Positions 4,091-49,579 are shown, counted from the first letter of the stretch. The stretch is 50,274 bases of DNA from Candidatus Levybacteria bacterium RIFCSPLOWO2_01_FULL_38_21 (GCA_001782475.1 MFOT01000007.1:1-50274), one strand, 5' to 3'. A program made the numbers and translations. The notes: generated from the sequence alone by a model not told the origin.

Positions 4091-4122
4091 ATTGCTATAT
4101 TGTTTCATTGTTAAATTGTTAG
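4091..4122. repeat. Degenerate 8-mer tandem array x4
   Basis: attgctat attgtttc attgttaa attgttag; reverse complement of the array at 42510. Confidence 0.7.
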
Positions 4123-4125
4123 CAA

Positions 4126-5217
4126 ATGTATAAATTACCGGATTTGAAAACTGCTCAAGTAAAAGGTAAAAAAGTTTTCTTAAGAACAGATATAGACGTG
4201 CCCCTATCGGAGAATGGGCAGATTGCAGATGATACAAGATTAGGAGAAGGACTTGAAACTTTGAACTTTCTTCTTAAAAACGGCGCAACGGTTTTTATCG
4301 GTGGACATCTTGGTCGTCCGGATGGTCTCAAAAGAGATCTAAGTGTTAAGCCAGTGACGAAATGGTACGCGAAAAAATTCAGAATTCAGAATTCAGAATT
4401 CAGAGTTCAGAGCATTGGAGGGTTCGAAGGCTTTCAAATCTCAGATAAACTATTTCTTCTTGAGAATTTGAGGTTTGATCCGGGAGAAGAATCTAGTCCA
4501 ACGACCCGCTCAGGACAAGTTTTTGCTCAAAAGCTTGCAAGCCTCGCAGATATATATGTAAATGATGCTTTTGCCTCATCACATCGTGCGCATGCATCAA
4601 TCGTAGGAGTTGCGAAACTTTTACCCCATTTTGCCGGTTTTATGCTTAAAAAAGAGGTAGAAACTCTGTCGGCCCTTCTTAATAATCCAAAAAGACCGCT
4701 TGCTGTTATCATTGGTGGCGCAAAGATAGAAACCAAACTTCCCTTGGTTGAAAAGATGCATCAGATTGCAGATTATGTTTTAGTGGGAGGACTAATTGCA
4801 GAAGAGACAAAAGTGCTTTTAAAAGTCCAGCATGAAAAAGTAAATCCGCCAGCTGGCGGAAGAAAGTCAGCACTTCTTGTCGCAGATTTAAACAGCGAAG
4901 AAACAGATATAACCCCAAAAGATGCGGAAAATTTTTTACAGATAATAAATCTTGCAAAAACAATTGTTTGGAATGGGCCGGTTGGAAAAACCGAGGGAAA
5001 CGAAGAAAATTTGGAAATTGGCACTGCAAAACTTGCCCGCGGAATTATTGACGCCGGAGTTTATTCGGTTGTTGGAGGAGGGGATACAATTGCGTATCTT
5101 AAAAAAATAGGACTTTTAGATAAATTTTCCTTTGTATCATCAGGAGGAGGCGCAATGCTCGAATTCCTTTCAGGCGAAAAATTACCAGGGATAGAGGCCT
5201 TGACAAGTTGTACGTAA
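4126..5217 (+). CDS. pgk: Phosphoglycerate kinase
   Basis: HLGRP, LLENLRF, YVNDAF, HRAHAS, GGAK, WNGP, GGGDT, SGGGAMLEFLSG. Confidence 0.97.
   Translation: MYKLPDLKTAQVKGKKVFLRTDIDVPLSENGQIADDTRLGEGLETLNFLLKNGATVFIGGHLGRPDGLKRDLSVKPVTKWYAKKFRIQNSEFRVQSIGGFEGFQISDKLFLLENLRFDPGEESSPTTRSGQVFAQKLASLADIYVNDAFASSHRAHASIVGVAKLLPHFAGFMLKKEVETLSALLNNPKRPLAVIIGGAKIETKLPLVEKMHQIADYVLVGGLIAEETKVLLKVQHEKVNPPAGGRKSALLVADLNSEETDITPKDAENFLQIINLAKTIVWNGPVGKTEGNEENLEIGTAKLARGIIDAGVYSVVGGGDTIAYLKKIGLLDKFSFVSSGGGAMLEFLSGEKLPGIEALTSCT
4376..4410 (+). repeat. In-frame heptamer array (AATTCAG)x4+1 in pgk
   Basis: Encodes FRIQNSEFRVQ. Confidence 0.9.
4496..4519 (+). repeat. Family A palindromic element (degenerate) in pgk
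   Basis: gtccaacgacccgctcaggacaag, peptide SPTTRSGQ. Confidence 0.75.
4845..4860. repeat. 16-bp perfect palindrome in pgk
   Basis: tccgccagctggcgga, peptide NPPAGG. Confidence 0.75.
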
Positions 5218-5228
5218 TGTTGTACATT
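5200..5228 (+). promoter_or_regulatory. Promoter/operator of TA operon, overlapping pgk stop
   Basis: TTGACA-N17-TACATT; two TTGTAC sites resembling YefM/Phd-type operators; ATG 6 nt after -10. Confidence 0.7.
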
Positions 5229-7463: not shown

Positions 7464-7530
7464 AGAATTAAGATTTAAGAAGTAAGAATTAAGAATATTC
7501 ATAAATCATAATTCGTAATTCCTAATTCAT
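7464..7530. repeat. Two inverted degenerate heptamer arrays filling the intergenic gap
   Basis: (agaatta)-like x5 followed by (attcata)-like x5. Confidence 0.8.
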
Positions 7531-8531
7531 TTTCGTGCTATTACTTTTCTCACAGCTTCTACTATTGCCGGAGCGTCCATCTTGTATTTTTCCATAAGCT
7601 CCTTGGGAGTTCCTGATTCTGCAAAAGTATTTTGAAGACCGATAAATTCCATGGGAGTTGGTTTATTTTTTGCCAAAACTTCTGCAATTGCACCTCCTAA
7701 GCCTCCCATGACCTGATGATCTTCAGCAGTCACGACTGCGCCGGTTTTTTCGGCAAGTTCAACAACGGTTTTTTCATCAAGCGGTTTTATGGTCGCAACA
7801 TTTGCGACTAACACTTCGATTCCCTCAGTGTCAAGCTCTTTGGCTGCCAAAAGCGCATTATAAAGAATATATCCTGTTGCAAAAATTACTGCCTGATATC
7901 CTGAGCCAGTCGAGGGATCAGATTCCCAGAAAGTTTGAATTTTTCCAACATCAAACGGAGTTTCGCTTGTTGTAATAACAGGAGTTTTGTCTCTCGTGAA
8001 TCTTAGATAAACTGGTCCATCAATTTCTGCCGCTTTTATAGTTGCTTTTTTTGCTTCAATAGCATCACAAGCCACAAAAATTGTAATTCCCGGCCAAGCT
8101 CTGACTGAAGCGATATCTTCTGTTGCTTGATGAGTCGCACCGTCTGGGCCTGTCACGATTCCCGAGTGATGGCCTGCGATTTTTACATTAGACTGGTTAT
8201 ATACAATAGTAGTTCTTATTGTCTCCCAGTTTTTTCCTGGAGAAAAAGTTGCGTAGGATGAAATGAACGGAATTTTCCCGCTTATTCCAAGACCCGCTGC
8301 AATTGCGGCCATATTTTGCTCGGCAACTCCGCATTCAAAAAAACGCTCTGGAAATTTTTTCTCAAATGCTTCTGTTTGCGTTGATTCAGAAAGATCAGCT
8401 GTTAACACAACCACATTCGGATTTTTTTCTCCCAATTCAACCAAACCCTCGCCATAGCCGGTTCTTGTTGCTTTCTGCTCAACGTTATTGTCAAAAATCT
8501 TCGGATTTAATTTTAAATTCGGATTTAACAT
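7527..8531 (-). CDS. Transketolase C-terminal subunit (start moved to ATG 8531)
   Basis: ADLSEST, GVAEQNM, GPDGATHQ, PVYLR, EDHQVMGGLG. Confidence 0.93.
   Translation of the reverse strand: MLNPNLKLNPKIFDNNVEQKATRTGYGEGLVELGEKNPNVVVLTADLSESTQTEAFEKKFPERFFECGVAEQNMAAIAAGLGISGKIPFISSYATFSPGKNWETIRTTIVYNQSNVKIAGHHSGIVTGPDGATHQATEDIASVRAWPGITIFVACDAIEAKKATIKAAEIDGPVYLRFTRDKTPVITTSETPFDVGKIQTFWESDPSTGSGYQAVIFATGYILYNALLAAKELDTEGIEVLVANVATIKPLDEKTVVELAEKTGAVVTAEDHQVMGGLGGAIAEVLAKNKPTPMEFIGLQNTFAESGTPKELMEKYKMDAPAIVEAVRKVIARK
7898..7918 (-). repeat. Family A palindromic element in transketolase C
   Basis: Minus strand atccctcgactggctcaggat, peptide DPSTGSG. Confidence 0.85.
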
Positions 8532-8542
8532 ACTTTTTTTCT

Positions 8543-8713
8543 GTACTTTTCTGCCGAGAAAAGTACCAAAAGCTCTCGCCAAGTGGTGCTCGTGCTTTCC
8601 AATTTCACCCGCTTGTCGGGTGATTTCACCCCTTCCTCAACCGCGTCTGACGCGGTGAGGAATCCCCCTGATCGCGCTCGTTCAATTGTCAGGCACTGCG
8701 CTCCAATTGGCGA
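8543..8713. other. GC-rich multi-hairpin intergenic element (MITE/REP-like or ncRNA)
   Basis: gtacttttct/agaaaagtac, tcgccaa/ttggcga, tcacccg/cgggtga, ttcctc-accgcgtc/gacgcggt-gaggaa. Confidence 0.6.
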
Positions 8714-8732
8714 TTCTTAAATTTCGATTTAT

Positions 8733-8767
8733 ATATTTTATCTTTTATATTTAATTTTTTTATTTAA
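8733..8767 (-). repeat. Degenerate AT-rich heptamer array after tkt N stop
   Basis: atatttt atctttt atattta atttttt; reverse complement resembles 44421 array. Confidence 0.45.
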
Positions 8768-10947: not shown

Positions 10948-11024
10948 AATAAGTTATAATTTTATTATGGTTCTAGGATAAGTTTAGTCTATTTACCAAG
11001 TTTTGACAAATATTTGTTTGCCTC

Positions 11025-11053
11025 TTGCTGCAACTTTTTTTCTCATCTATACT
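11025..11053 (+). promoter_or_regulatory. Promoter in front of gap 5' remnant
   Basis: TTGCTG-N17-TATACT-N6-ATG(11060). Confidence 0.55.
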
Positions 11054-11059
11054 AATTTT

Positions 11060-11113
11060 ATGACAAGAGTTGCGATAAACGGATACGGGAGAATAGGACG
11101 AGGGAACGGGTGA
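11060..11113 (+). pseudogene. Displaced gap 5'-end remnant (MTRVAINGYGRIGRGNG*)
   Basis: First 14 codons are 35/42 nt and 12/14 aa identical to the intact gap start at 12559. Confidence 0.9.
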
Positions 11114-11455
11114 ACGGGGACTGAACGTGAACGGGGACGGTCCTACGACAGATTGATAGAGCAATCCAAATTAGGCATGTTTTTTTAGTTTTTTTTGTTG
11201 AGAAGATCTTTCGGCAACGAGGCTATCTCTCCAAGCAAAAAGAAAACTACATTAAAATTAGCTTGTCACAATAAGATTTCTCAGGACCGTCCCCAAGGTA
11301 CCCAAGGTACCAAGGTACACAAGGTACAAAGTATTACGCTTGCTCGTAATAGCATAGTTTAAGAACAGTAGATCTCTAACACAGTAACACAGGGTCGGAC
11401 CCTCAGTTACCCTCAGTTAGGATCAAAAGAGTTACGACGAGGTCGGACCTCGTAA
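11104..11455. repeat. Cluster of REP-like repeats
   Basis: Stuttered tgaacggggac; 12-bp inverted pair ggggacggtcct (11133-11144)/aggaccgtcccc (11283-11294); caaggtac x4; palindromes agggtcggaccct and acgaggtcggacctcgt. Confidence 0.75.
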
Positions 11456-11507
11456 TAGAAACTGAGTTGAGTGATTCCTAGGGTGTGGAGCAGAAGGATT
11501 GGGAGAT

Positions 11508-12558: not shown

Positions 12559-13653
12559 ATGGTTAGAATTGCAATAAACGGATACGGAAGAATAGGAAGA
12601 GTGGCACATAGGGTAATTTTGGAAAAGCACTCACAAGAAATTGATGTTGTCGCAATAAACGCAGGTTCCTCAACAGATATTAGAGGATGGATGTACCTCT
12701 TAAAGTACGATACTGCGTATCATACTTTAAATTCAAAATTCAAAATTCAAAATTCAAAATTAAACGAGGAGGAGAAAGTAGGAATATTAAAAGATGGGAT
12801 AGGCTACCTCATCATAAATGATAAAAAGATTCCTGTTTTTTCGCAGAAAGATCCGAGTCTTTTACCATGGAGAGATTTAAATATAGATGTAGTAATTGAG
12901 TCAACAGGACATTTTACCAAAGAGGAAAAATTAAAACTTCATCTTGATGCCGGCGCAAAGTTTGTTGTTTTATCTGCACCCATTAGAAAAGGAGACCCTT
13001 CGGCAAGCTCAGGGCAAGGGGTTCCGACATATATTTTATCTGTCAACGCAAAAGATTACAAAGGAGAAAAATTAATTAATAACGCATCCTGTACCACAAA
13101 CTGTATTACGCCGGTTGCAAAAGTAATTGTAGATAATTTTGGAGTAGAAAAGGCAATGATGACAACAATACACGGATATACATCAGATCAGCGACTTCAG
13201 GACGGAGGACACAAGGACTTAAGAAGAGCAAGGGCAGCAGCGGAAAATATAATTCCAACATCAACAGGTGCAACAATTGCAGCTTCGCAGGCATTGCCGG
13301 AACTAGCAGGTATCTTTGCCGGACTTGCAATAAGAGTACCGGTTGCAGTTGGGTCTCTTTCGGATTTTACATTTCTTCTTAAGAGAGAAACTACCAAAGA
13401 GGAAGTAAATGAGATATTCAAAAGAGAAGCGCAGAAAGAGGAATATCAAGGAATACTTGAGGTAACAGAAGATCCAATTGTGTCAAGTGATATAATAGGC
13501 AATCCCCATTCTGCAATTGTTGATCTCTCGCTTACTCAGGTTGTTTTAGGAAATATGCTTAAAGTTATTGCCTGGTATGACAATGAATACGGATATTGCA
13601 ACAGGTTAGTTGAAGAAGTTTTAATGGTAGGGAATAAAATTCCTAATTTCTAA
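12559..13653 (+). CDS. gap: Type I glyceraldehyde-3-phosphate dehydrogenase (start moved to ATG 12559)
   Basis: INGYGRIGR, NASCTTNC, IPTSTGA, WYDNEYGY; promoter TTGAAT-N17-TATTCT. Confidence 0.97.
   Translation: MVRIAINGYGRIGRVAHRVILEKHSQEIDVVAINAGSSTDIRGWMYLLKYDTAYHTLNSKFKIQNSKLNEEEKVGILKDGIGYLIINDKKIPVFSQKDPSLLPWRDLNIDVVIESTGHFTKEEKLKLHLDAGAKFVVLSAPIRKGDPSASSGQGVPTYILSVNAKDYKGEKLINNASCTTNCITPVAKVIVDNFGVEKAMMTTIHGYTSDQRLQDGGHKDLRRARAAAENIIPTSTGATIAASQALPELAGIFAGLAIRVPVAVGSLSDFTFLLKRETTKEEVNEIFKREAQKEEYQGILEVTEDPIVSSDIIGNPHSAIVDLSLTQVVLGNMLKVIAWYDNEYGYCNRLVEEVLMVGNKIPNF
12729..12763 (+). repeat. In-frame heptamer array (AAATTCA)x4+1 in gap
   Basis: Encodes NSKFKIQNSKL. Confidence 0.9.
12995..13018 (+). 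repeat. Family A palindromic element in gap
   Basis: acccttcggcaagctcagggcaag, peptide DPSASSGQ. Confidence 0.9.
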
Positions 13654-13703
13654 TTTTTAATTTCTAAACAAATCCCAATAATTAAATTTCAAACGCTCAA
13701 AAC
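13638..13703 (+). repeat. Heptamer array overlapping gap stop codon
   Basis: aattcct aatttct aattttt aatttct then degenerate units; contains the TAA at 13651. Confidence 0.75.
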
Positions 13704-18914: not shown

Positions 18915-21377
18915 ATGAAACTTGATGGAATAAGGAATAAAGTATTTTTGGATAGATATGCTTTAAAGGGAGTTAAGGGAGAGTTGCTTGAGAAATCTCC
19001 TGAGGAAATGTGGAAAAGAGTAGCAAGGGGTATTGCCGAAAATGAAAAGAAAATTAAAAGAGCTTATTGGAAACAAAAATTTTATAGTGTAATGAAAGAC
19101 TTCAAGTTTGTTCCCGGCGGAAGAATCCTCTCCGGTGCGGGAACAGATTATGAGGTGACCTATTTCAACTGCTTTGTTATTCCATCTCCAAAAGATTCAA
19201 GAGAGGGAATTTTAGAATCCTTAAAACAGCTGGTAGAGATTCAATCAAGATCAGGGGGAGTTGGTCTTAATCTTTCATCTCTAAGACCAAGGGGTGCCCG
19301 TGTTAAAAAAGTAAATGGAACATCCTCCGGTCCTGTAACTTGGGCAGGATTATTTTCATACGCAACCCATGATGTTGTCCAGCAAGGGGGAACAAGACGA
19401 GGAGCAACTATGCTTATGCTTTGGGACTGGCATCCGGATATTGAAGAATTTATAACTGTAAAACAGGACCTCTCCAAAATAAACGGAGCAAATCTTTCCG
19501 TTTGTATCTCCGATAGTTTTATGGAAGCGGTTAAAAAAGACAGCGATTGGGATTTGGTTTATCCGGACTTAGATGATCCTAAATACGATGCAAAATGGAA
19601 CGGAGAAATAGATGAGTGGAAAAAACTAGGCGGAAAAATAAAAGTTTATAAAATTGTAAAAGCCCGATATCTTTGGAATCTAATCTGCGAAGCTGCCTGG
19701 AGAAGTGCTGAGCCTGGGCTTCATTTTCTTCAAAGGTCAAATAAAAGAAGCAACACCTGGTATTTTGAAAAACTAATCGCCACAAATCCCTGCGGAGAAC
19801 AACCCCTTGGTGCTTGGGCTGTTTGTAATCTCGGTGCAATGAATTTGGCGGCCTATGTTAAAAATGAAAAATTCGATTATGAGAGCTTTTCGGAAGATGT
19901 AAAAGTTGCAATAAGATTCTTAGACAACGTTATAGATAAAACTTATCACTTCTTTAAACAGAACGAAAAAGTAGCCAAAGACATCAGAAGAACCGGACTT
20001 GGCATTATGGGCTTGGGAGATGCGCTTATTAAAATGAAAGTACGCTACGGATCAGATGAATCTCTTAAGATTATAGATAAAATTTTTGAGACTTTAAGAA
20101 ATAGCGCCTATGATGCATCTTCTGATATTGCAAAAGAAAAAGGAGCATTCCCAAAGTTCAATAAAGCAAAGTATTTGGAAGGTTACCATATTAAAGAGTT
20201 GACACCAGAAATTCAAAAAAAGATTGCAAAGCAGGGCATAAGAAATGCTGTTCTTTTAACTATTGCACCAACTGGAACAACTTCGCTTCTTTCGGGAGTG
20301 ACATCGGGGATTGAGCCGGTTTATGAATTCACCTTTATAAGGCGGGATAGAACCGGAGAGCACATTATGTATCATCCGTTTTTTGAAGAGTGGAAAAAAG
20401 AGAACCCTTCGGCAGGCTCAGGGCAAGTCCCGGATAGGCCTGATTATTTTGTCTGCGCAAATGATCTGACTCCACCTGAGCATGCGCAAGTTCAGGCAGT
20501 TGCGCAAAAATATGTAGATGCATCTATTTCAAAAACAGTGAATGCTCCAAACTCTCACACAGTCGAGGATGTAAAAACACTTTATATGGCAGCTTATGAC
20601 TTAGGACTTAAAGGGGTAACTTATATGAGAGATGGAAGTCGAGAGGGAGTTCTTTCAAGGGTTGAAGATAAAAAAGATCCTTCGGCAAGCTCAGGACAAG
20701 AGAAAATTACCAAACCGGTTATTCCACGCCCCATGCAGCTTGAAGGAGTGACTTATCAAATTCAAACACCTGTTGGAAAAACATACATTACTATTAATCA
20801 TAACGAGAACAAAGAGCCGTTTGAGGTTTTTATTACTATTGGAAAGTCAGGCTCTGATGTTGCGGCAATGGCAGATGCATTAGGCAGAATTATTTCCGTA
20901 AACCTTCGTCTCTTAGGAGGACTTTCTCCAAGAGAAAAAATAAGGGAGATTGTAGCCCAGCTTGCAGGAATTGGCGGAGCAAGAAGTGTCGGGTTTGGAA
21001 AAGATAAGGTGAGATCTTTACCAGACGGTGTTGCAAAAATACTTGCAATGCATTTTGGTTTCGCCGTAAATGGACAGGTTGAGGATAAAAATACTCAGGC
21101 CAATGGACAAGTCCAGCCCCAAGTATTAGCAAATGGGAACGGACCCTTTAATGGAAAAGCAGAAATTAAAACAGAAAACGAAAAAACCCCTGGGGTTGTT
21201 GAGATGCAACAGCTGGCACTGGTTGGAAAAGGAAGCGGACTTATGGCAGAAGACAGTAGTCCGTATGAGATAGCTGGAACAAGCCTTTATGATCTTTGTC
21301 CTGAATGCGGGGCGGGGAGTCTGGCATATGAGGAAGGATGCAGAAAATGCTACAGTTGTGGTTATTCAGAGTGCTAA
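18915..21377 (+). CDS. nrdJ: Adenosylcobalamin-dependent (class II) ribonucleotide reductase with C-terminal TSCPD/zinc-ribbon region
   Basis: FVPGGR, NCFV, QGGTRRGA, TNPCGEQ, CNLG, APTGT, ISKTVN, CPECG...EGC..C..CGYSEC; no beta subunit nearby. Confidence 0.93.
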   Translation: MKLDGIRNKVFLDRYALKGVKGELLEKSPEEMWKRVARGIAENEKKIKRAYWKQKFYSVMKDFKFVPGGRILSGAGTDYEVTYFNCFVIPSPKDSREGILESLKQLVEIQSRSGGVGLNLSSLRPRGARVKKVNGTSSGPVTWAGLFSYATHDVVQQGGTRRGATMLMLWDWHPDIEEFITVKQDLSKINGANLSVCISDSFMEAVKKDSDWDLVYPDLDDPKYDAKWNGEIDEWKKLGGKIKVYKIVKARYLWNLICEAAWRSAEPGLHFLQRSNKRSNTWYFEKLIATNPCGEQPLGAWAVCNLGAMNLAAYVKNEKFDYESFSEDVKVAIRFLDNVIDKTYHFFKQNEKVAKDIRRTGLGIMGLGDALIKMKVRYGSDESLKIIDKIFETLRNSAYDASSDIAKEKGAFPKFNKAKYLEGYHIKELTPEIQKKIAKQGIRNAVLLTIAPTGTTSLLSGVTSGIEPVYEFTFIRRDRTGEHIMYHPFFEEWKKENPSAGSGQVPDRPDYFVCANDLTPPEHAQVQAVAQKYVDASISKTVNAPNSHTVEDVKTLYMAAYDLGLKGVTYMRDGSREGVLSRVEDKKDPSASSGQEKITKPVIPRPMQLEGVTYQIQTPVGKTYITINHNENKEPFEVFITIGKSGSDVAAMADALGRIISVNLRLLGGLSPREKIREIVAQLAGIGGARSVGFGKDKVRSLPDGVAKILAMHFGFAVNGQVEDKNTQANGQVQPQVLANGNGPFNGKAEIKTENEKTPGVVEMQQLALVGKGSGLMAEDSSPYEIAGTSLYDLCPECGAGSLAYEEGCRKCYSCGYSEC
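20404..20427 (+). repeat. Family A element in nrdJ, copy 1
   Basis: acccttcggcaggctcagggcaag, peptide NPSAGSGQ. Confidence 0.9.
20677..20700 (+). repeat. Family A element in nrdJ, copy 2
   Basis: atccttcggcaagctcaggacaag, peptide DPSASSGQ. Confidence 0.9.
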
Positions 21378-21411
21378 CCAGCAACTAGCAACTAGTTTCT
21401 AGTGACTAGTT
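21376..21411. repeat. Heptamer array after nrdJ stop
   Basis: aaccagc aactagc aactagt ttctagt gactagt. Confidence 0.75.
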
Positions 21412-21620: not shown

Positions 21621-22148
21621 CCAATTTATACAAAAGCAGGGGATAAAGGACAAACAGGACTTTTTTCTGGAAAAAGAGTTTCAAAAGCAAACCCTCGGAT
21701 AGAGGCAATCGGTGCAGTGGATGAATTAAACAGCACGATAGGGTTCGCCCTATCGCAAATCCGAAATCCGAAATCCGAAATCCGAAAAGAATTAATAAAG
21801 ATTCAAAATGATCTATTTGAAATCGGCGCTGCGTTGGCAAATCCCAAACAGAAGATTAATCTTTCAAATAGAACAAAGGAATTCGAGAATATGATTGATA
21901 AAATGACTAAAGAATTGCCTCCGCTTTTTAACTTTGTTCTTCCTGGAGGAGGAATGGTAGGTTCATCTTTGCATATCGCAAGAACAGTTTGCCGTCGAAC
22001 GGAAAGAAGAATTGTTGAGTTATCTAAAAAAGAAAAAGTTCAAGGCGACCTCATTATTTATATAAATAGACTTTCCGATCTTTTTTTAACTATGTCAAGA
22101 TATATAAATTATAAAGAAAAACGGAAAGAGATTATTTGGAAAACCTAG
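21618..22148 (+). CDS. pduO: ATP:cob(I)alamin adenosyltransferase, PduO type
   Basis: IYTKAGDKGQT, GAVDELNS, FVLPGG, ARTVCRRTER, INRLSD. Confidence 0.93.
   Translation: MPIYTKAGDKGQTGLFSGKRVSKANPRIEAIGAVDELNSTIGFALSQIRNPKSEIRKELIKIQNDLFEIGAALANPKQKINLSNRTKEFENMIDKMTKELPPLFNFVLPGGGMVGSSLHIARTVCRRTERRIVELSKKEKVQGDLIIYINRLSDLFLTMSRYINYKEKRKEIIWKT
21757..21784 (+). repeat. In-frame perfect heptamer array (AAATCCG)x4 in pduO
   Basis: Encodes QIRNPKSEIR. Confidence 0.92.
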
Positions 22149-28762: not shown

Positions 28763-28778
28763 TCTTCTTAAAGGATCT

Positions 28779-32547: not shown

Positions 32548-32560
32548 ATTGCTATTTTTT

Positions 32561-33905: not shown

Positions 33906-35285
33906 ATGATAGACAGGTTTAAAAATAAAAAGATTGCAGTAATCGGGCTTGGGGTTGAAGGATTGTCAAGCGCACTTTTTTTAGCAAAAAGGGGAGCGAT
34001 TGTTTCGGTTTTGGATCAAAAAAAAGAAAATAAATTAGACCCTAGCTTTCTTAAGATATTAAGAGAAAAAGATATTAGGATATTTGGGAGCGAGGATTAT
34101 CTCAAAAATCTTAAGGAGTACGATTTGGTTGTAAGAAGTCCGGGAGTTAAATTAGAGCTTCTGGGAAAATATGTATCAAAAGATAAAATTACCTCTCAAA
34201 TAAAAATTTTCTTCGATCTCTGCCCTTGCCCCATCATTGGGGTAACCGGAACAAAAGGGAAAGGAACAACTTCTTCTTTAATTTATGAAATGTTAAGAAA
34301 AGAAGGTTTTGATGCATATCTTGGGGGAAATATTGGTAGCCCCCCCCTAGATTTTTTGAATAAACTTAATGCTCAATCAAAAGTCGTCTTGGAACTTTCC
34401 AGTTTTCAGTTACAAGATCTTTCAAAGAGCCCCCATATTGCAGTCATTCTTATGATAACAAGTGAGCATCTTGATTATCATAAAGATACCAATGAATATG
34501 TTAAAGCAAAAAGAAATATTTTAAAATTTCAGACCTCATCAGATGCGGCAATTGTAAATAAGGATTATCCGGCAAACAATGAGTCGGATATTCATATAGA
34601 AGGTAAGGTTTTTCAGATAAGCCGGAGCGGAAAAGTAAAAGAAGGGTGTTTTGTGGATAATGAAAAAATTTTCGTAAGCATTCCAAAGGGAAGATTTAAT
34701 ACTTTAAAAGCAGAAATTATTAAAACAAAAGATATTCTTTTGCCCGGAGAGCATAACTTGGAGAATGTTTGCGCGGCAGCTATGGCAGCTCTTCTTTGTG
34801 GAGTTTCAAAAGAAAATATCGTAGCCGTTTTAAAGACATTTAAGGGACTTGAGCATAGGCTTAAGCTTGTTTCGGAAATAGATGGAGTAAAATTTTATGA
34901 TGACTCTTTTTCTACAATTCCGGAGACGACTATTGCGGCAATTAAGGCGTTTTCGGATCCTGAGATTTTAATTCTTGGAGGATCGAGTAAAAATAGTGAT
35001 TTTAGAGAATTAGGAGAAGTTATTTCATCATCCAATAACATAAAAGCGATTATTGGGATTGGTATTGAGTGGCCGAGAATAAAAGAAAGTATTAAGTATC
35101 ATGTATCAAGTATTAAGTATATCGAGGGATTAAAAACGATGAGTAAAATAGTTCAAAAAGCCCATCAACTGGCAAAATCGGGGGATGTTGTTTTGCTTTC
35201 TCCAGCCTGCGCTTCTTTTGACATGTTCAAAAACTACAAAGACCGCGGAAACCAGTTTAAGAGAGAAGTAAAAAGTTTAATTTGA
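33906..35285 (+). CDS. murD: UDP-N-acetylmuramoyl-L-alanine:D-glutamate ligase (start moved to ATG 33906)
   Basis: RSPG, GVTGTKGKGTT, GGNIG, ELSSFQL, EHLDYH, EHRL, LLSPACASFDMF..Y..RG. Confidence 0.96.
   Translation: MIDRFKNKKIAVIGLGVEGLSSALFLAKRGAIVSVLDQKKENKLDPSFLKILREKDIRIFGSEDYLKNLKEYDLVVRSPGVKLELLGKYVSKDKITSQIKIFFDLCPCPIIGVTGTKGKGTTSSLIYEMLRKEGFDAYLGGNIGSPPLDFLNKLNAQSKVVLELSSFQLQDLSKSPHIAVILMITSEHLDYHKDTNEYVKAKRNILKFQTSSDAAIVNKDYPANNESDIHIEGKVFQISRSGKVKEGCFVDNEKIFVSIPKGRFNTLKAEIIKTKDILLPGEHNLENVCAAAMAALLCGVSKENIVAVLKTFKGLEHRLKLVSEIDGVKFYDDSFSTIPETTIAAIKAFSDPEILILGGSSKNSDFRELGEVISSSNNIKAIIGIGIEWPRIKESIKYHVSSIKYIEGLKTMSKIVQKAHQLAKSGDVVLLSPACASFDMFKNYKDRGNQFKREVKSLI
35087..35121 (+). repeat. 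In-frame heptamer array (AAGTATY)x5 in murD
   Basis: aagtatt aagtatc atgtatc aagtatt aagtata, peptide SIKYHVSSIKY. Confidence 0.85.
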
Positions 35286-41451: not shown

Positions 41452-41464
41452 AAGAGGTTGCAGT

Positions 41465-42631
41465 GTGAAAATAGCTATAGTACACGACTATATAAAGGAA
41501 TACGGGGGAGCGGAGAGGGTTTTGGAAGCTCTTCATGAAATTTTTCCTGATGCGCCGGTCTATACCACAGTTTTTTTACCTGAATTTCTTGGGCCTCACG
41601 AAAACAGATTTAAAAACTTTAAAATAAAGACTTCGTTTCTTCAATATTTACCATTTAAGGAAAAACTAATAAGTCCGATTCGTGTAATCGCGCCATTGGT
41701 CTTTAAATCTTTCAATTTCTCGGGCTTTGACGTTGTTATTGTTTCTGCAACAGGAGCCTATTCTCCAAATGGAAAATGGAAAATGGACAATGGAAAATTT
41801 CCAATCCATATATGTTACTGCCATACTCCTCCAAGATATCTTTATGGTTTTGCAACAGCCAGGGAGTGGAAGAATAATTTAATTTTCCGAGTTTTTGGAG
41901 AGCTTGCAAATCATTTTTTAAGGTTAGTTGATTATAAAAGCTCCCAAAATGTAGATTACTTTATTGCAAATTCAAAAAATGTTGCAGGGAGGATCAAGAA
42001 GTTTTATAGAAGAGATGCTGTTGTAATTTACCCGCCGGTTGACACTAATTCAAAATTCAAAATTCAAAATTCAAAATTGAAAGTCAAAAGTCAAAAGGAT
42101 GGATATTTTCTGGCGGGGGGAAGGATAGCACGGCCAAAAAACATTGAGCTGATAATCAAAACTTTTGAAAAACTTAAACTTCCTCTTAAAATCTTCGGGC
42201 GAAGTTTTGGAGGCCTCGATATCGAAAGCGAATCACGAATCACGAATAACGAATCACGAATCGAATATCTTGGAGAAGTAAGCGATGAAGATAAGTACGA
42301 GCTTATGAGAAATGCTACGGCATTTATTTTTGCTTCAGTTGATGAGGATTTCGGCATTACTCCGGTTGAGGCAATGAGCGTTGGAACACCGGTTATCGCG
42401 TATCGATCGGGTGGAGTAGTAGAATCGGTGGTTGACCCTTCGACACGCTCAGGGCAAGCGGTGACGGGAATATTTTTTGAAGAATTATCGCTCGAGAGCT
42501 TGAGTAAAGCAATCAAACAATTTAACAATCTAACAATCAATCCGCAGGATTGCATTTCCCAAGCCCAAAAATTCTCAAAAGAGAGGTTTAAGAGAGAAAT
42601 AAAAGAGTTTGTGGGGAAAATATATGCCTGA
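41465..42631 (+). CDS. GT4 family glycosyltransferase (start moved to GTG 41465)
   Basis: KIAIVHDY...GGAERV, YCHTPPRYLY, VIYPPV, EDFGITPVEAM..GTPV. Confidence 0.93.
   Translation: MKIAIVHDYIKEYGGAERVLEALHEIFPDAPVYTTVFLPEFLGPHENRFKNFKIKTSFLQYLPFKEKLISPIRVIAPLVFKSFNFSGFDVVIVSATGAYSPNGKWKMDNGKFPIHICYCHTPPRYLYGFATAREWKNNLIFRVFGELANHFLRLVDYKSSQNVDYFIANSKNVAGRIKKFYRRDAVVIYPPVDTNSKFKIQNSKLKVKSQKDGYFLAGGRIARPKNIELIIKTFEKLKLPLKIFGRSFGGLDIESESRITNNESRIEYLGEVSDEDKYELMRNATAFIFASVDEDFGITPVEAMSVGTPVIAYRSGGVVESVVDPSTRSGQAVTGIFFEELSLESLSKAIKQFNNLTINPQDCISQAQKFSKERFKREIKEFVGKIYA
41767..41794 (+). repeat. In-frame heptamer array (AAATGGA)x4
   Basis: Peptide NGKWKMDNG. Confidence 0.88.
42047..42095 (+). repeat. 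In-frame heptamer array (AATTCAA)x4 plus 3 degenerate units
   Basis: Peptide NSKFKIQNSKLKVKSQ. Confidence 0.9.
42229..42262 (+). repeat. In-frame heptamer array (CGAATCA)x5
   Basis: Peptide ESRITNNESRI. Confidence 0.9.
42435..42458 (+). repeat. Family A element in glycosyltransferase
   Basis: acccttcgacacgctcagggcaag, peptide DPSTRSGQ. Confidence 0.9.
42510..42538 (+). repeat. In-frame 8-mer array
   Basis: caatcaaa caatttaa caatctaa caatc, peptide AIKQFNNLTI. Confidence 0.75.
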
Positions 42632-43559
42632 GTTACCAGAGGTTGAGACAATTAAATTAGGGCTTCAAAAATATCTCATTGGACATCGGATTGAAGGGGT
42701 TGATGTTAGGCTTCCCAAAATTGTTCAGGGGAATGTCAAAGATATTGAGGGCGGTAAGGTTATCGCCGTCAGACGATTTGGAAAAGGGCTGGTCATTGAT
42801 CTTGATAACGATTACTCAATCGCAATTCACATAAAACTCACAGGACAACTCATCTATAGAGGACCAAATCTTAGACAAAAAGTAAAACTGTCCAAAAAAG
42901 TCGGGGGAAGCTTACCTAATAAGTGGACTCACGTGATATTCAAACTCAAAAGTCAACCCGTTCGACAAGCTCAGGACAAGAAGACAAAAGTTAAAAGTGC
43001 AACTCAAAACTCAAAAGCTACAGATGCTTATCTTTATTACAATGATATTCGGCAGTTTGGATGGATTAGAATAGTTGAAAGTTCAAAGTTAAAAGATTTA
43101 AGCTTCTTCAGAGACTTGGGGCCAGAGCCTCCAGTCACAATGTCGATAGGGGTTCAACCCCTTACGCTAGAATTGTTTAAAAAAATAGTCAATTCATTAA
43201 ACACGGCAATAAAACCACTTCTTATGGATCAAAAGAGAATTGGGGGAATTGGAAATATTTATGCAAACGATGCTTTATTTGATGCTGAAATAGATCCAGG
43301 AAGAAAAGCAAAAAGCTTAAGTGATGCGGAGATTAAAAAACTTTATAACTCTATTCTTAAGGTTCTCAAAATCGGCCTTAGAGAAGAGGGGGCATCTGAA
43401 CTTAGTTTTGTAAATGCATTAGGAGAAGAGGGGAGTTATCAGAATCATTTTCTTGTTTATGGAAGGGAAGGTCAGAAATGTAAAAGGTGTAACGGAATTA
43501 TAAAAAAAATAATCTTGGGTGGCCGCGGAACCTACTTCTGCCCAAACTGCCAAAAATAA
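42624..43559 (+). CDS. mutM: Formamidopyrimidine-DNA glycosylase
   Basis: MPELPEVET, RRFGK, DIRQFG, GIGNIYA, C..C...GRGTYFCPNCQ. Confidence 0.96.
   Translation: MPELPEVETIKLGLQKYLIGHRIEGVDVRLPKIVQGNVKDIEGGKVIAVRRFGKGLVIDLDNDYSIAIHIKLTGQLIYRGPNLRQKVKLSKKVGGSLPNKWTHVIFKLKSQPVRQAQDKKTKVKSATQNSKATDAYLYYNDIRQFGWIRIVESSKLKDLSFFRDLGPEPPVTMSIGVQPLTLELFKKIVNSLNTAIKPLLMDQKRIGGIGNIYANDALFDAEIDPGRKAKSLSDAEIKKLYNSILKVLKIGLREEGASELSFVNALGEEGSYQNHFLVYGREGQKCKRCNGIIKKIILGGRGTYFCPNCQK
42938..43016 (+). repeat. Heptamer array with nested family A element (42957-42980) in mutM
   Basis: attcaaactcaaaagtcaa[cccgttcgacaagctcaggacaag]aagacaaaagttaaaagtgcaactcaaaactcaaaa. Confidence 0.85.
43148..43162. repeat. 15-bp palindrome in mutM
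   Basis: aggggtt-c-aacccct, peptide GVQP. Confidence 0.5.
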
Positions 43560-43715: not shown

Positions 43716-44423
43716 ATGGGCAATAATCATAAGGAAAAGATTGTAATGTCCGTCGGAGGATCCCTCATTGTTCCAAACGGAGGGATCAACACCGATTTTC
43801 TTAAGAAGCTTAATGCTTTTATAAGAAAGCAACTGGCGAAAAATAAAAACCGCCAGTTTTTTTTGGTTGGAGGAGGAGGATCAATAGCAAGACACTACCG
43901 TGATGCCGGAGAAATAGTTGTCGGACACGAACTCACCCGCGATGATTTGGACTGGCTTGGGATTCATGCAACAAAACTGAATGCACATCTTGTAAGAACC
44001 ATCTTCCGTGACATTGCCCACCCCTATATTCTTAAACACTACGAAATTATAAGAAAAGTTACGGAGCCAGTTGTGGTTGCTGCAGGATGGAAGCCGGGCT
44101 GGTCTACAGATTATGATGCTATTCTTCTTTGCGAAGATTACAACGTGAGAACTGTAGTGAATTTAACCAATATCGAAAAAGTTTACGATAAAGATCCTAA
44201 AAAACATAATGACGCTAAGTCCTTCGATAAGATTTCTTGGTCAAACTTTAGAAAAATAGTAGGAGATGAATGGATCCCTGGAATTAATGCTCCATTTGAT
44301 CCTGTCGCTTCGAAAAAAGCGCAGGAATTAGGTGTTACAGTTATCGTTATTAAAGGAGACGATTTTGAGAATCTTGAGAATTATTTTAACGGCAAAAAAT
44401 TCGTCGGAACTGTTATTAAATAA
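43716..44423 (+). CDS. pyrH: UMP kinase, archaeal type
   Basis: SVGGS, GGGSIARHY, DWLGIHAT, PGWSTD, VYDKDP, PFDP. Confidence 0.92.
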   Translation: MGNNHKEKIVMSVGGSLIVPNGGINTDFLKKLNAFIRKQLAKNKNRQFFLVGGGGSIARHYRDAGEIVVGHELTRDDLDWLGIHATKLNAHLVRTIFRDIAHPYILKHYEIIRKVTEPVVVAAGWKPGWSTDYDAILLCEDYNVRTVVNLTNIEKVYDKDPKKHNDAKSFDKISWSNFRKIVGDEWIPGINAPFDPVASKKAQELGVTVIVIKGDDFENLENYFNGKKFVGTVIK

Positions 44424-44462
44424 AATATAAAATAGAAAATATAAAAAATACAAATCAAAAAT
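44421..44462 (+). repeat. AT-rich heptamer array after pyrH stop
   Basis: taaaata taaaata gaaaata taaaaaa tacaaat caaaaat. Confidence 0.6.
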
Positions 44463-45580: not shown

Positions 45581-46435
45581 ATGAATAAATTCGATCCTAA
45601 GGTTTTTAAAAAATTGTATAGACCGCCGTCTAATTCTCACAAAGGGCAAAATGGAAAACTAATGATTATCGGAGGATCAAAGCTTTTTCACGCCGCATCT
45701 CTTTGGTCTTTGAAGGTTGCATCAAGAATAGTAGATATGGTTTTTTATTCATCCATTTCCGAAAACAACCAGATAGTCCAAAAGGCAAAAGAGGAATTTA
45801 GAGACGGAATTGTGGTACCAAGAGATAGAATCGATGATTATATAAATGAGGTAGACTGCATTTTAATAGGTCCCGGACTTCCAAGAGAGGAGGGGCAGGA
45901 GAAGGGGGATGATGATACAAAAGGCCTTACAGAGAAACTGCTTAAGAAATATCCCAACAAAAAATGGGTTATAGACGGAGGTTCTCTGCAAATGATGGAT
46001 TTGGAGATTATCCCGCGCAGTTCAATCTTGACTCCCCACAAAGGAGAGTTTGAGGTGCTCAAATTAAAAATTAAAAATGAAAAATTAAAAACGACAATTC
46101 AAAATTTAAAATTAGAAGAACAAGTTAAGATTTTTGCCGAAGAGTTCAATTGTATTGTACTTCTGAAGGGAAAAGAAGATATCATTTGCTCCCCCAGTGA
46201 ATGTTTAATTGTTGAAGGGGGGAATGCTGGTATGACAAAGGGAGGAACAGGAGATGTTTTGGCAGGTCTTGTCGCGGCTTTATATTGTAAAAACCAAGCT
46301 TTTCTTTCTGCTTGCGCAGGGTCTTCCATCAACAAAAAGGCAGGAGACAGCCTCTATAAAAAAGTAGGTTATTATTTTAATGCGTCCGATCTAGTCGACG
46401 AAATCCCAAAGGCGATGAAAAAATTAATCCTCTGA
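45581..46435 (+). CDS. nnrD: ADP-dependent NAD(P)H-hydrate dehydratase
   Basis: HKGQNG..IGGS, IGPGL, LTPHKGEF, LLKG, GGTGDVLAG. Confidence 0.92.
   Translation: MNKFDPKVFKKLYRPPSNSHKGQNGKLMIIGGSKLFHAASLWSLKVASRIVDMVFYSSISENNQIVQKAKEEFRDGIVVPRDRIDDYINEVDCILIGPGLPREEGQEKGDDDTKGLTEKLLKKYPNKKWVIDGGSLQMMDLEIIPRSSILTPHKGEFEVLKLKIKNEKLKTTIQNLKLEEQVKIFAEEFNCIVLLKGKEDIICSPSECLIVEGGNAGMTKGGTGDVLAGLVAALYCKNQAFLSACAGSSINKKAGDSLYKKVGYYFNASDLVDEIPKAMKKLIL
46061..46116 (+). repeat. In-frame heptamer array in nnrD
   Basis: aaattaa aaattaa aaatgaa aaattaa aaacgac aattcaa aatttaa, peptide KLKIKNEKLKTTIQNLKL. Confidence 0.8.
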
Positions 46436-46705: not shown

Positions 46706-46721
46706 CGAATATAATTATATC

Positions 46722-47783
46722 ATGTACGCCCCAAAATTTACCATTACAAACAAAATTCTTAAAAATATCGGGATAATTGAGGCCTCAAGGGAAATAATAG
46801 ATAAAGCTCCGCTTCTTCCTTATTATGAAAAGCAATTTCAAGATGATGCGCTTATTAGAACAGTCCATTATGGTACTCACATCGAAGGAAACGAACTCAA
46901 TCTAACTCAGGCAGAGAATGTAATTATGGGAAAAGATGTTGTTGCAAGACAACGCGATATTCAGGAAGTTATAAACTATAGAAAAGTTATCCAATTTATA
47001 GGTGATTTGGAAGAAGAATTGAAAGAAAAGACAACAAAAGAAGTCAGTGAAAATATCATCAAAGAACTTCATAAGCTCGCTGTTAAAAAAATATTATCAA
47101 CCGAAACCATTGGAGAATATCGAAAAAAACAGGTTGTTGTGAAAAATAGTTATACCGGAAAGATTTCCTTTAAGCCTCCACTTTCTGTTGCAATTCCATT
47201 TCAGATAAAAGACCTAATTGCATTTATCAATAGCACGAAAGAATCAGATATTCATCCTGTTTTGAAGAGCGGAATTGTTCATTATGAACTTGTAAGAATT
47301 CACCCGTTTTTAGACGGAAACGGACGAGTTGCAAGAGCTCTATCAACTTTAATCTTATTCTTGGAAGGTTATGATATAAGAAAATTTTTCTCGCTTGAGG
47401 AATACTTCGATAAAGAAGCGCAAAGATATTATGAAGCACTTCAAAGTGTTGAGAAAAATGACGGCGATTTGACAAAGTGGCTTGAATATTTTACAGAAGG
47501 TCTTGCGATTGAACTTTCTAAAATAAAAGATAGAGTAGAGAAAATTTCAATCGATGCAAATCTTAGAGCAAAGCTTGGCGGAAGACCAATTATGCTTTCG
47601 AACCGCCAGCTTAAGATAGTTGAATATATGCAAAAAGCAGGATTTCTTCAAAACAAAGCATTCGAAAGCCTTTTCCCAATGGTTTCTGAGGACACAATTT
47701 TAAATGAGTTGAAAGGCTTACAAAAGGTCGGTATAATCCGAAAACAAGGAGTCACAAAAGCCGCAAAATATGTGATGAAATGA
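46722..47783 (+). CDS. Fic domain protein (start moved to ATG 46722)
   Basis: THIEGN, HPFLDGNGRVAR, C-terminal wHTH-like region. Confidence 0.92.
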   Translation: MYAPKFTITNKILKNIGIIEASREIIDKAPLLPYYEKQFQDDALIRTVHYGTHIEGNELNLTQAENVIMGKDVVARQRDIQEVINYRKVIQFIGDLEEELKEKTTKEVSENIIKELHKLAVKKILSTETIGEYRKKQVVVKNSYTGKISFKPPLSVAIPFQIKDLIAFINSTKESDIHPVLKSGIVHYELVRIHPFLDGNGRVARALSTLILFLEGYDIRKFFSLEEYFDKEAQRYYEALQSVEKNDGDLTKWLEYFTEGLAIELSKIKDRVEKISIDANLRAKLGGRPIMLSNRQLKIVEYMQKAGFLQNKAFESLFPMVSEDTILNELKGLQKVGIIRKQGVTKAAKYVMK

Positions 47784-49579
47784 AATTTAGGACTTTGGCA
47801 GAGTATTACGAGAAATTGGAGGGGACTTCAAAAAGGTTGGAGCTGATTGATATTCTTTCTGAATTATTTAAAAAAGCAAAGAGTGATGAGATAGGCAAGA
47901 TTTGCTATTTAATTCAGGGAAGGGTTGCTCCATTTTTTGAACCAATTGAGATTGGGATGGCAGAATCAATGATTGCGCAATCCGTTTCAAGAGCTTTTGA
48001 TGAAAGCAAAGAGGACGTTTTAAGGCTTTATAGAAAGTTGGGTAATTTTGGACTTGCGGCGCAATCATTGAGTAACAAGAAACAAGCAACAAGGGACAAG
48101 TTATCAGTCAAGGAAGTTTTTGATGAGCTTCTAAGAATTGCTAAATTTTCGGGAGAGGGGACTGTAGAAAAAAAAGTTTCAACTCTTTCAGATCTTTTGA
48201 AAAAGGTAGATCCTGTAAGCGCAAAACACATAGTAAATATCCCGCTTGATACGCTTCGTTTAGGCATAGGTGATCCGACAATCCTCGATGCTCTTTCTTT
48301 ATCAAAGAATGGTGATAAAACACTTCGCCCGATTCTTGAGGATGCTTATAATAAAACGAGCGACTTGGGTTTTGTTGCCGAAACATTTTTTAAGAAGGGA
48401 ATAGGCGGTATTAAAAATGTAAAACTAGTCGTTGGAAAACCTGTGAGACCTGCTCTTGCCGAAAGACTTCCCTCGGCAGATGAGGCAATCAAGCGCTTGG
48501 GGAAAAAATTTGCCGCAGAACCAAAATTTGATGGATTTAGAGTGCAAGTCCACATGGATAGAAGACACCTCCGAGGTGTGCCGCAGGCGCAACACCACCT
48601 CGGAGGTGGAGGAGAAGGGGTTATTCTGCTTTTTTCAAGAAATCTTGAAAATACAACTCATGCTTTTCCAGACATTGTCGATGGCGTCAAAAAAGAAGTA
48701 AAAGCAAAATCTGCGATTTTGGAAGGAGAGGCAATTGCGTATAATCCTGTTACATCGGAATTTTTGCCGTTTCAGGAAACTACAAAAAGAAGAAGAAAAT
48801 ATAAAATTGAGGAGATGGCAAAAAAACTCCCCCTAGTTTTATTTGCCTTTGATCTTTTGTATTTAAACGGAAAAGATATTACCCAAAAACCATACAAAGA
48901 AAGACGAGAGCTTTTGGAATTAATAGTTTCAAAAAATGGTGATATTGTTAAAATTGCCGAAGAAAAAATTCTAAAAAGCGCAAAAGAAATAGCGGAGTTT
49001 TTCAACGAAGCAATATCAGAAGGACTTGAAGGACTTATGCTTAAAAAACTGGACAGCGCTTATGTTGCAGGAGGGCGAGGTTTTCACTGGATTAAATTTA
49101 AAAGAAGTCAGGCAGGATCACTTACGGATACATTAGATTGCGTGCTTTTGGGAGTTTATTCGGGAAAGGGGAAAAGGACAGAGTTTGGCGTGGGAGGGCT
49201 TTTGGTCGGCGTTTATGATGAAAAGAAAGATGAGTTTGTATCAATTTCAAGAATTGGAACAGGACTAACGGATGAGGAATTTAGAAAAGTAAATGAAATT
49301 TCAAAGCATTTAAGGGTACAACATAAGCCAGCTCGGGTCAATTCCAACATAACCCCTTCCCATTGGGTTGAGCCAAAGGTAGTTTTGGAAATTCAGGCAG
49401 ATGAGATAACCCGCTCTCCAATTCATACAGCAGGGAGGGATAAAGAAGGTCTGGGATATGCTCTCCGTTTCCCACGCCTTGTAAAATTTAGAGAAGAAGA
49501 CAAAAGAGCAGAAGACGCAACAACAGTAAATGAAGTCATAAAACTTTACAATCAACAATTTGCCCACCACAAAAAATAG
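47780..49579 (+). CDS. lig: ATP-dependent DNA ligase
   Basis: EPKFDGFRVQVH, LEGE, FDLLY, EGLMLK, WIKFK, LRFPR. Confidence 0.95.
   Translation: MKFRTLAEYYEKLEGTSKRLELIDILSELFKKAKSDEIGKICYLIQGRVAPFFEPIEIGMAESMIAQSVSRAFDESKEDVLRLYRKLGNFGLAAQSLSNKKQATRDKLSVKEVFDELLRIAKFSGEGTVEKKVSTLSDLLKKVDPVSAKHIVNIPLDTLRLGIGDPTILDALSLSKNGDKTLRPILEDAYNKTSDLGFVAETFFKKGIGGIKNVKLVVGKPVRPALAERLPSADEAIKRLGKKFAAEPKFDGFRVQVHMDRRHLRGVPQAQHHLGGGGEGVILLFSRNLENTTHAFPDIVDGVKKEVKAKSAILEGEAIAYNPVTSEFLPFQETTKRRRKYKIEEMAKKLPLVLFAFDLLYLNGKDITQKPYKERRELLELIVSKNGDIVKIAEEKILKSAKEIAEFFNEAISEGLEGLMLKKLDSAYVAGGRGFHWIKFKRSQAGSLTDTLDCVLLGVYSGKGKRTEFGVGGLLVGVYDEKKDEFVSISRIGTGLTDEEFRKVNEISKHLRVQHKPARVNSNITPSHWVEPKVVLEIQADEITRSPIHTAGRDKEGLGYALRFPRLVKFREEDKRAEDATTVNEVIKLYNQQFAHHKK
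48073..48100 (+). repeat. In-frame heptamer array (NNACAAG)x4 in lig
   Basis: taacaag aaacaag caacaag ggacaag, peptide NKKQATRDK. Confidence 0.75.
48566..48608. repeat. In-frame 43-bp hairpin element in lig
   Basis: cacctccgaggtg-N17-cacctcggaggtg, perfect 13-bp inverted repeat; peptide HLRGVPQAQHHLGG. Confidence 0.85.

Follow-up and report, generated by a model that had tools for sequence, protein, structure and literature searches.

Contig MFOT01000007.1 of Candidatus Levybacteria bacterium RIFCSPLOWO2_01_FULL_38_21 (GCA_001782475.1) carries many short tandem arrays whose units are 7 nucleotides (nt) long and differ from array to array. We analyzed the whole stretch of 50,274 nt (hereafter, the window), which is one entire contig (C7) of an assembly of 787,844 bp in 28 contigs, with a completeness of 98.4% and a GC content of ~37%. 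Arrays were detected with Tandem Repeats Finder (TRF) and genes were named from Pfam matches. The latter include DUF5667 and DUF5671, which are typical of bacteria of the candidate phyla radiation (Patescibacteria). With at least 3.5 copies, TRF identified 13 arrays of period 7 in the window, for three of period 8, two of period 9, and one of period 6. All the arrays listed in the original prediction, which was made from the sequence alone, were recovered by TRF at their places, and Pfam confirmed their host genes.

Several arrays lie within genes on the plus strand. In pgk (4126-5217), 5.1 copies of AATTCAG (4376..4411) are in frame and encode the peptide KFRIQNSEFRVQS. In gap (12529-13653), a perfect in-frame array of 33 nt with 4.7 copies of AAATTCA (12729..12761) encodes LNSKFKIQNSKL, within a stretch that is 16 residues longer than the GAPDH of T. 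maritima when aligned to the solved structure. A perfect in-frame array of 31 nt (AAATCCG, 4.4 copies, 21757..21787) is found in a gene for a PduO-type cobalamin adenosyltransferase (21618-22148), and another in-frame array (AAGTATC, 4.9 copies, 35087..35120) in a gene for a MurD-like Mur ligase (33699-35285). The GT4 glycosyltransferase gene (41402-42631) carries three in-frame arrays: AAATGGA (4.6 copies, 41767..41798), a composite of AATTCAA and AAGTCAA (7.3 copies, 42047..42096) with similar composites on contigs C25 and C17, and CGAATCA (4.9 copies, 42229..42262). Near its C-terminus there is also an 8-nt array, CAATCTAA, in 3.6 copies (42510..42538). In fpg/mutM (42609-43559), degenerate in-frame arrays of AACTCAA (2.3 copies, from 43001) and AGTTAAA (3.3 copies, from 43073) occupy 43001..43095, and the N-terminal domain at this place is ~31 residues longer than the Pfam model. 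The last two are in the gene for NAD(P)HX dehydratase (45581-46435; AAATTAA, 7.9 copies with 75% matches, in frame, 46061..46114) and in that for an ATP-dependent DNA ligase (47780-49579; AACAAGA, 2.9 copies, 48074..48093). The peptide NSKFKIQNSKL, whose identity in gap and GT4 had been pointed out beforehand, is present in both because both hold the unit AAATTCA. Such arrays thus produce spurious low-complexity peptide matches among unrelated proteins.

Other arrays of the window are found at gene ends or between genes. Three of them, on the plus strand, supply or overlap a stop codon: AATTTCT (4.3 copies, 13638..13667) overlaps that of gap, AACTAGC (2.9 copies, 21376..21395) is at the stop of a ribonucleotide reductase gene, and ATAAAAT (5.0 copies, 44420..44455) overlaps the stop of a gene of the amino-acid-kinase family. 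An 8-nt array, AATTGTTA, in 4.0 copies (4090..4121) lies between a CvpA/CAP-domain gene and pgk. At 7464..7530, 4.7 copies of AGAATTA abut 4.9 copies of ATTCATA (from 7497). The two arrays are mutual reverse complements whose units differ at one of seven positions, and together they form an AT-rich hairpin of 67 nt (RNA fold of -9.7 kcal/mol), directly downstream of the gene for the C-part of transketolase and between two tandem minus-strand genes. A degenerate array of ATTTTAT (5.6 copies, 8727..8767) is located between two split transketolase genes, the N-terminal part and the pyrimidine-binding/C-terminal part of the enzyme being encoded by separate genes (7527-8582 and 8769-9632). Finally, an array of 8-9 nt, CCAAGGTA(C), in 4.1-4.6 copies (11292..11331) is found in the spacer 10948-11507, which is unusually long (560 nt) and has several other small direct repeats and no Rfam family. 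A scan of the window with Rfam 15 found two tRNAs only, and no known RNA family reached the gathering score at the arrays.

The dominance of period 7, one of the claims of the original prediction, was borne out in the whole genome (hereafter G000). TRF identified 145 arrays of period 7 with at least 3.5 copies in 0.79 Mb, for 15 of period 6, 15 of period 8, and 17 of period 9, whereas five dinucleotide-preserving shuffles in 1-kb blocks gave a mean of 1.8 arrays of period 7. When only perfect arrays of at least 20 nt were counted, there were 54 of period 7, two of period 6, none of period 8, 13 of period 9, and two of period 10. We also used a pattern that is independent of TRF, (AAANNNN)x4 AAA, i.e., AAA five times at a fixed spacing. 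It gave 54 clusters at spacing 7, one to four at spacings 5, 6, 8, 9, and 10, and none in the shuffle. In a congener (G001), of which 517 kb were examined, we found 80 arrays of period 7 and at most 15 of any other period. The excess of period 7 is real and far above chance. Being head-to-tail tandem copies of 7 nt that are commoner than expected by chance and than neighboring periods, these arrays belong to the heptanucleotide simple sequence repeats of prokaryotes.

We then counted all arrays with at least three copies. The 168 arrays of the genome fall into 68 canonical units, the commonest of which accounts for only 10 of them, with a GC content of 0.22 (for ~0.37 in the genome). Copy numbers peak at 4-5, as had been noticed in the window. 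To locate the arrays, we used a crude set of open reading frames (ORFs), i.e., not curated gene calls, of at least 80 residues, taken longest first, which covers 90% of the genome. By this measure, 103 of the 168 arrays are within ORFs, 21 straddle the end of an ORF, and 44 are intergenic; the hosts are 76 of the 788 ORFs. Hence, most arrays are in frame, as had been proposed, and the intergenic enrichment typical of heptanucleotide repeats is seen only per kb: there are 0.56 arrays per kb in intergenic DNA and 0.15 per kb in ORFs, a difference of ~4x. Arrays in ORFs encode 7-12 extra residues, in frame, in variable loops of core enzymes, the comparison of the loop with a solved structure being made for GAPDH. 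The elements lack the features of miniature inverted-repeat transposable elements (MITE) or repetitive extragenic palindromes (REP): we found no conserved element with defined ends, and no terminal inverted repeats or target-site duplication, though a minority of composite arrays recur at several loci. Among 30 perfect arrays, 12 start with AAA, and their flanks are without a motif, the information content being at most 0.34 bit per position (n = 30).

The composition of the arrays depends on the strand. On the sense strand, arrays in ORFs have 0.48 of A, 0.29 of T, 0.15 of C, and 0.07 of G, for 0.34 of A in all coding DNA, in agreement with the A-rich coding strand reported earlier. We asked if the avoidance of stop codons could be the full cause of A-rich and G-poor units. 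This was rejected, since random stop-free coding heptamers have 0.30 of A and 0.21 of G. Stop avoidance accounts for the orientation of the arrays and not for their whole composition. A comparison of seed sites was discarded as circular, given that the arrays themselves were among the seeds. Among the 44 intergenic arrays, 28 have units with stops on both strands, which is the case of 17% of random genomic heptamers.

The lengths of the arrays are not evenly distributed. An unbiased scan of perfect period-7 runs showed a bimodal distribution with a second mode at 31-34 nt in both G000 and G001. In G000, 16 perfect runs have 31-34 nt, five have 24-27, five have 28-30, and none reaches 38, the maximum being 37 nt; the corresponding numbers in G001 are seven, four, none, and one (38 nt or more). 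Taking G000 and G001 together, there are 28 perfect runs of 28-34 nt, 23 of which finish with a partial unit of 3-6 nt (p = 0.005), in keeping with the addition of three units to a seed that comprised one unit and a microhomology. Arrays of 39-49 nt are rare in ORFs (2/148) relative to intergenic or edge positions (8/79; Fisher p = 0.004), and ORFs have 14 arrays of 24-27 nt for 45 of 31-34 nt, the intergenic numbers being 13 and 13 (p = 0.023). One orthologous pair shows a clean indel of 21 nt, i.e., three units, by which G000 is longer than G001. The net length of arrays in ORFs thus behaves as if it were quantized in steps of 21 nt, a point that the original prediction had proposed to check. 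We had taken a peak at 31-34 nt among (AAATCTC)n arrays from many phyla as a signature of microhomology, and withdrew this argument because a phase-specific search over-samples the longer arrays within 28-34 nt. None of the 56 contig ends of G000 is a heptamer array, making assembly breakage an unlikely cause of the ceiling at 37 nt. In at least one relative, G025, contigs C1 and C4 start within long arrays of AAATTAG, and long arrays can thus break assemblies.

To study the fate of the arrays, we compared the sites of 45 in-ORF arrays of G000 that are spanned by an alignment with a G001 orthologue. In 21 of them, G001 has an array at the same site, for a background of 0.7%; four others show weak periodicity and 20 show none. 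Only six of the shared sites have the same unit, whereas in the other 15 the units differ at 2-4 of the 7 positions. For instance, G000 has five copies of ATCAACA where G001 has five of AAAGTTA, the flanks being identical and the two proteins sharing 78% identity. In the window, pgk has a related array, and the gene of the MurD-like ligase an AAATC-type array, at the same position in G001. The loop of GAPDH gives a broader view: it has a heptamer array in 5 of 20 genomes, from four genera, and the other 15 have non-repetitive loops of varying length. Its units are perfect AATTCAA in G000, perfect AATTCAG in G014, a mixture of both in G015, AAATCTC in G005, and ATATCAA in G001. These alignments indicate that the arrays are in concerted evolution at persistent sites. 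As orthologous sites retain an array while its unit is replaced, the turnover can be measured.

The period is not exclusive to this genus. In 20-kb samples of 20 genomes of the phylum, whose genomes have 0.5-2 Mb, we found 67 arrays of period 7 and at most 14 of any other period. Similar samples of 20 relatives of the same family or order (two of them shorter, at contig ends) gave 33 arrays of period 7 and at most three of the others. These comparisons involve related genomes, which are not independent samples. In 0.9 Mb of unrelated metagenome contigs, there are 39 arrays of period 7 for at most nine of any other period, i.e., 43 per Mb, G000 having 184 per Mb. One unit, in exact arrays of four copies, was found in at least 124 places, in phyla including Planctomycetota, Verrucomicrobiota, Bacteroidota, Cyanobacteriota, Acidobacteriota, Chloroflexota, and Patescibacteria. 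According to published surveys, heptamers are the commonest class of long simple repeats in most prokaryote genomes and a cause linked to the footprint of the polymerase has been suggested (Mrazek 2007, as reported in PMC4679880 and PMC4692102); their excess was also published, with its cause unexplained, in PMC6344855 (Mori et al. 2018, SPADE). Hence, the premise of the original prediction that ordinary slippage would not favor period 7 is not supported. The sequence is present in 17 sequencing runs of groundwater and soil metagenomes, which belong to 8 studies and are stored as assembled contigs. An exact search of metagenome contigs with a 29-nt anchor gave no match, and a search for GAPDH in metagenomes gave 80 loci, the closest with 71% identity, which served only as a baseline sample.

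The density of arrays varies widely between lineages. We used the number of matches to the spacing pattern as an index of arrays in 61 genomes of the phylum: it is 0 in 14 of them and 60-103 in ten. Families are internally consistent, being either rich (102, 88, 60; 103, 103) or poor (1, 1, 2; 0, 0), and in the family of G000 the index ranges from 1 to 79, which is more than 20-fold. A contrast of this size among close relatives is what is needed to seek a genetic determinant. We searched for one among four gene families in the same 61 genomes. MutL_C is present in 10 of them, with indices of 7, 5, 34, 1, 1, 7, 0, 64, 0, and 1, and many MutL-negative genomes are at 0; no clear-cut relation emerges, and no MutL was detected in G000. 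The ATP-dependent ligase (15/61, indices 0 to 103) and PolA (50/61, the 11 genomes without it having indices of 0 to 81) do not track the density of arrays, and searches for the family-A DNA polymerase (PolA) domain found none in G000 or in three closed genomes from its class. A reverse transcriptase was found in 19 of the 61 genomes, but neither in G000 nor in G033, G036, G051, G058, G080, G083, and G087, which are rich in arrays.

The explanation towards which we lean is that arrays arise by microhomology-primed slippage with a strong intrinsic register of 7 nt, and are then shaped by selection, by homogenization, and now and then by copying from one array to another. Reiteration of the local heptamer would be seeded by a short microhomology at a distance of 7 nt, in most cases a run of A. 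Any AT-rich heptamer of the site could serve, which would explain the 68 units. To survive in an ORF, an array would need to lack stops in the three frames of the sense strand, to add a multiple of 21 nt, and to lie in a permissive surface loop; arrays of 4.x copies (31-34 nt, 7-12 residues) would be the product of this filter, as 1.x copies plus three. Units with stops would be retained only in intergenic DNA or where they form a new end of a gene. After its establishment, an array would be long-lived at its site, where cycles of contraction and expansion by 21 nt, sometimes with copying from another array, would keep it uniform while the unit drifts. This would explain why related species have different units at the same site. 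The bias would be the one through which heptamers outnumber all other long simple repeats of prokaryotes, acting at a high rate in this lineage. The excess of period 7, the location and frame of the arrays, the sharing of sites, the turnover of units, and the patchy distribution are observed, whereas the slippage step, the events adding three units, and the mechanism of homogenization are the parts of this scheme that we infer.

A number of observations weigh against this explanation. Differences at 3-4 of the 7 positions between units at one site require many cycles of homogenization, or else replacement. The contrast between arrays of 24-27 and 31-34 nt is not significant when coding arrays are compared with intergenic plus edge ones (p = 0.16). 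Intergenic arrays too have a mode at 29-34 nt (19/52), and (AAATCTC)n arrays across phyla drop steeply beyond 34 nt, in an open frame or not, such that the preference for 4.x copies may be partly intrinsic and not caused by the frame filter alone. The index varies from 0-3 to ~100 between families and more than 20-fold within a family, which is not what a universal property of the polymerase predicts. Also, some arrays recur at different loci. Two unrelated genes of G001 (L023 and L045) have, in frame and with unrelated flanks, an identical imperfect array of 35 nt made of two units, one variant unit, and two units. In G000, 8 groups of loci have imperfect 24-mers in common, including a composite of 32 nt on contigs C4 (~10559-10611) and C24 (~89862-89913). 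Identical imperfect arrays at unrelated loci point to copying between loci and not to local slippage alone. Local slippage is therefore incomplete as an explanation.

The copies on C4 and C24, which lie between tandem genes, are irregular composites of AAAGTCA-type units with the same 6-nt 'slip'. This composite also recurs at several loci (L210, L017) in G019, a genome of another family, and a T-rich inverted arm comes after each copy. The composite looks like a small dispersed hairpin element made of heptamers. More generally, 7 of the 23 pairs of adjacent arrays in the whole genome are inverted, and all seven are intergenic or at gene ends. The hairpins that these seven form have a high AT content and are weak, at -9.7 to -26.8 kcal/mol. 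These pairs may be terminator-like elements. In G080, arrays occur as plus/minus pairs ~85 nt apart, and G041 and G058 each have the same composite heptamer strings at many loci.

The original prediction had invoked a dedicated generator or a mobile minisatellite-like element. Arrays of ~32 nt would then be written in one step, or pre-formed arrays would be copied as non-autonomous cassettes or by ectopic conversion, thanks to a lineage-specific enzyme. Some observations favor this idea, as the density of arrays is heritable and yet patchy by family (1-79 in that of G000) and identical imperfect arrays are found in unrelated genes, i.e., the 35-nt array of G001, to which one may add the 8 groups of G000 loci, the composite present at two loci of G000 and in another family, and those recurring in G041 and G058. 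The very different units, each in ~5 copies, at the same site of congeners, the steep drop at 35 nt in the cross-phylum sample, and the 7 inverted copies among 23 adjacent pairs also point in this direction. Against it, there are 68 units and no conserved ends, target duplication, or flank motif. The partial units at array ends suit priming by microhomology, period 7 is dominant also in a broad sample of unrelated contigs, and the gene families provided no candidate, since MutL, the ATP-dependent ligase, and PolA do not track density and the reverse transcriptase was not found in G000 or the seven rich genomes. We thus regard a generator as possible but doubtful; what keeps it in play is the patchiness of the densities and the duplication of imperfect arrays. 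It is an equally tentative proposition that a heritable lineage-specific activity, be it an enzyme or a property of the replisome that is gained and lost, writes ~32-nt arrays of local heptamers, rewrites them where they already are, and on occasion copies them to other loci. If this were true, it would be a main source of lineage-specific loop insertions in the core proteins of these 90%-coding genomes, and the contrasts of more than 20-fold between sister lineages would open the question 'why 7?' to comparative genetics.

Two other explanations ascribe a function to the arrays. As 7 is not a multiple of 3, the gain or loss of one unit would frameshift the gene, and the arrays could be on/off switches, as was also suggested in the original prediction. 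The known contingency loci of Haemophilus and Neisseria are long tracts in surface or restriction-modification genes that are polymorphic in populations. They resemble our arrays in having, in or near a gene, a unit that is not a multiple of 3, whereas our tracts are short (4-5 copies) and conserved in frame in housekeeping genes. Indeed, the hosts are not surface, restriction-modification, or dispensable genes: GT4 is the only envelope-type host of the window, and the others include single-copy core genes (pgk, gap, murD-like, fpg, NAD(P)HX dehydratase, DNA ligase) of a 0.79-Mb genome. Arrays of the congener are in frame at the same sites, and arrays are equally common between genes, with units bearing stops. 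In the assembly, no gene was found to be split by a frameshift at an array. An array is at the junction of two same-strand ORFs in 18 places, seven of which have matches in G001 for both neighbors, and in all seven the two ORFs are separate genes, the match of each beginning close to its own start; the remaining 11, without such matches, include operon junctions with 4-nt overlaps. Heptamer repeats were proposed to be sites of phase variation in Xanthomonas (PMC6344855), and for the arrays described here we regard this function as very improbable. It also seems unlikely, for the subset of intergenic arrays and especially for the inverted pairs, that they are selected as hairpin terminators, RNA-stability elements, or binding sites of proteins, with coding arrays as by-products. 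The location of all seven inverted pairs outside ORFs, the ~4x higher density between genes, and the composite of C4 and C24, with its A-rich arm followed by a T-rich arm between tandem genes and its partial conservation in another family, favor such a role, and a regulatory one was proposed for the TAACTGA repeats of Beggiatoaceae (PMC4679880). Yet, the diversity of units speaks against sequence-specific binding, the hairpins are weak, there is no match in Rfam, and the 103 arrays in ORFs would be left unexplained. Microhomology-primed slippage with a 7-nt register thus remains the explanation that we favor. These arrays are not a gene switch but a dense instance of a habit of bacterial DNA that is known and has yet to be explained.

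How do these arrays compare with other small repeats of bacteria? Rickettsia palindromic elements, in reduced genomes, and the small dispersed repeats of cyanobacteria, reportedly described by Elhai in 2008, are small repeats that conserved genes accommodate in frame and that are replaced at orthologous sites. Both have a defined consensus of ~21-150 nt, whereas here there is no consensus beyond the period of 7 nt. In filamentous cyanobacteria, the repeats called STRR are said to consist of a few fixed heptamer units per genome and to be mostly intergenic. They are alike in being tandem heptamers, highly iterated and restricted to certain lineages. With 68 units, the top one in 10 of 168 arrays, in a genome of 0.79 Mb from a phylum whose sampled genomes have 0.5-2 Mb, our arrays do not fit this definition. 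STRR heptamers (Mazel et al. 1990) are mentioned in PMC4692102. In marine Beggiatoaceae, TAACTGA is found in 2-6 copies, for the most part immediately before start codons, and heptamers akin to it seldom occur as repeats (MacGregor 2015, PMC4679880). Forward copies have stops in all frames, hence their location at gene ends, and reverse copies are occasionally in frame at the periphery of proteins (PMC4679880). There, a single unit is involved, whereas the genome studied here has many, mostly inside genes. The GGGAATC and GGGGAYT repeats of Xanthomonas and Nostoc are intergenic arrays, some in inverted pairs, G-rich and capable of forming quadruplexes (Rehm et al. 2015, PMC4692102), and those at the same intergenic site differ in length and sequence between close relatives (PMC4692102); our units are AT-rich and G-poor. 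The closest likeness is with the heptanucleotide repeats of prokaryotes at large (Mrazek, Guo and Shah 2007; Mori et al. 2018), which are also head-to-tail 7-nt units in few copies, over-represented, and present in many phyla. The emphasis of these surveys is on intergenic repeats and, within genes, on units whose length is a multiple of 3, whereas here 103 of 168 arrays are in ORFs, including those of core enzymes, at 184 arrays per Mb, and persist at their sites while units turn over.

A literature search of incomplete coverage, which included few subscription journals, brought up no earlier account of heptamer arrays in Patescibacteria, and none in which core genes carry them densely and in frame. 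The genome shows the process in DNA that is almost all coding, where arrays persist in frame in essential enzymes as short loop insertions. They may help to account for the unusual insertions in the proteins of these bacteria.

The window has a few other features. A possible mobile or island segment (23773-29218) encodes a coupling ATPase similar to VirD4/TrwB, a tRNA-Ile(TAT), and small DUF4926 and Gp49-like genes, with a tyrosine integrase on the opposite strand. The ATP-dependent DNA ligase (47780-49579) has three domains, and a stand-alone 5'-3' exonuclease is encoded at 40459-41382. Finally, two adjoining genes of the GH130 family (mannoside phosphorylases) are found at 30628-33685, one of which encodes 639 residues with two matched stretches.

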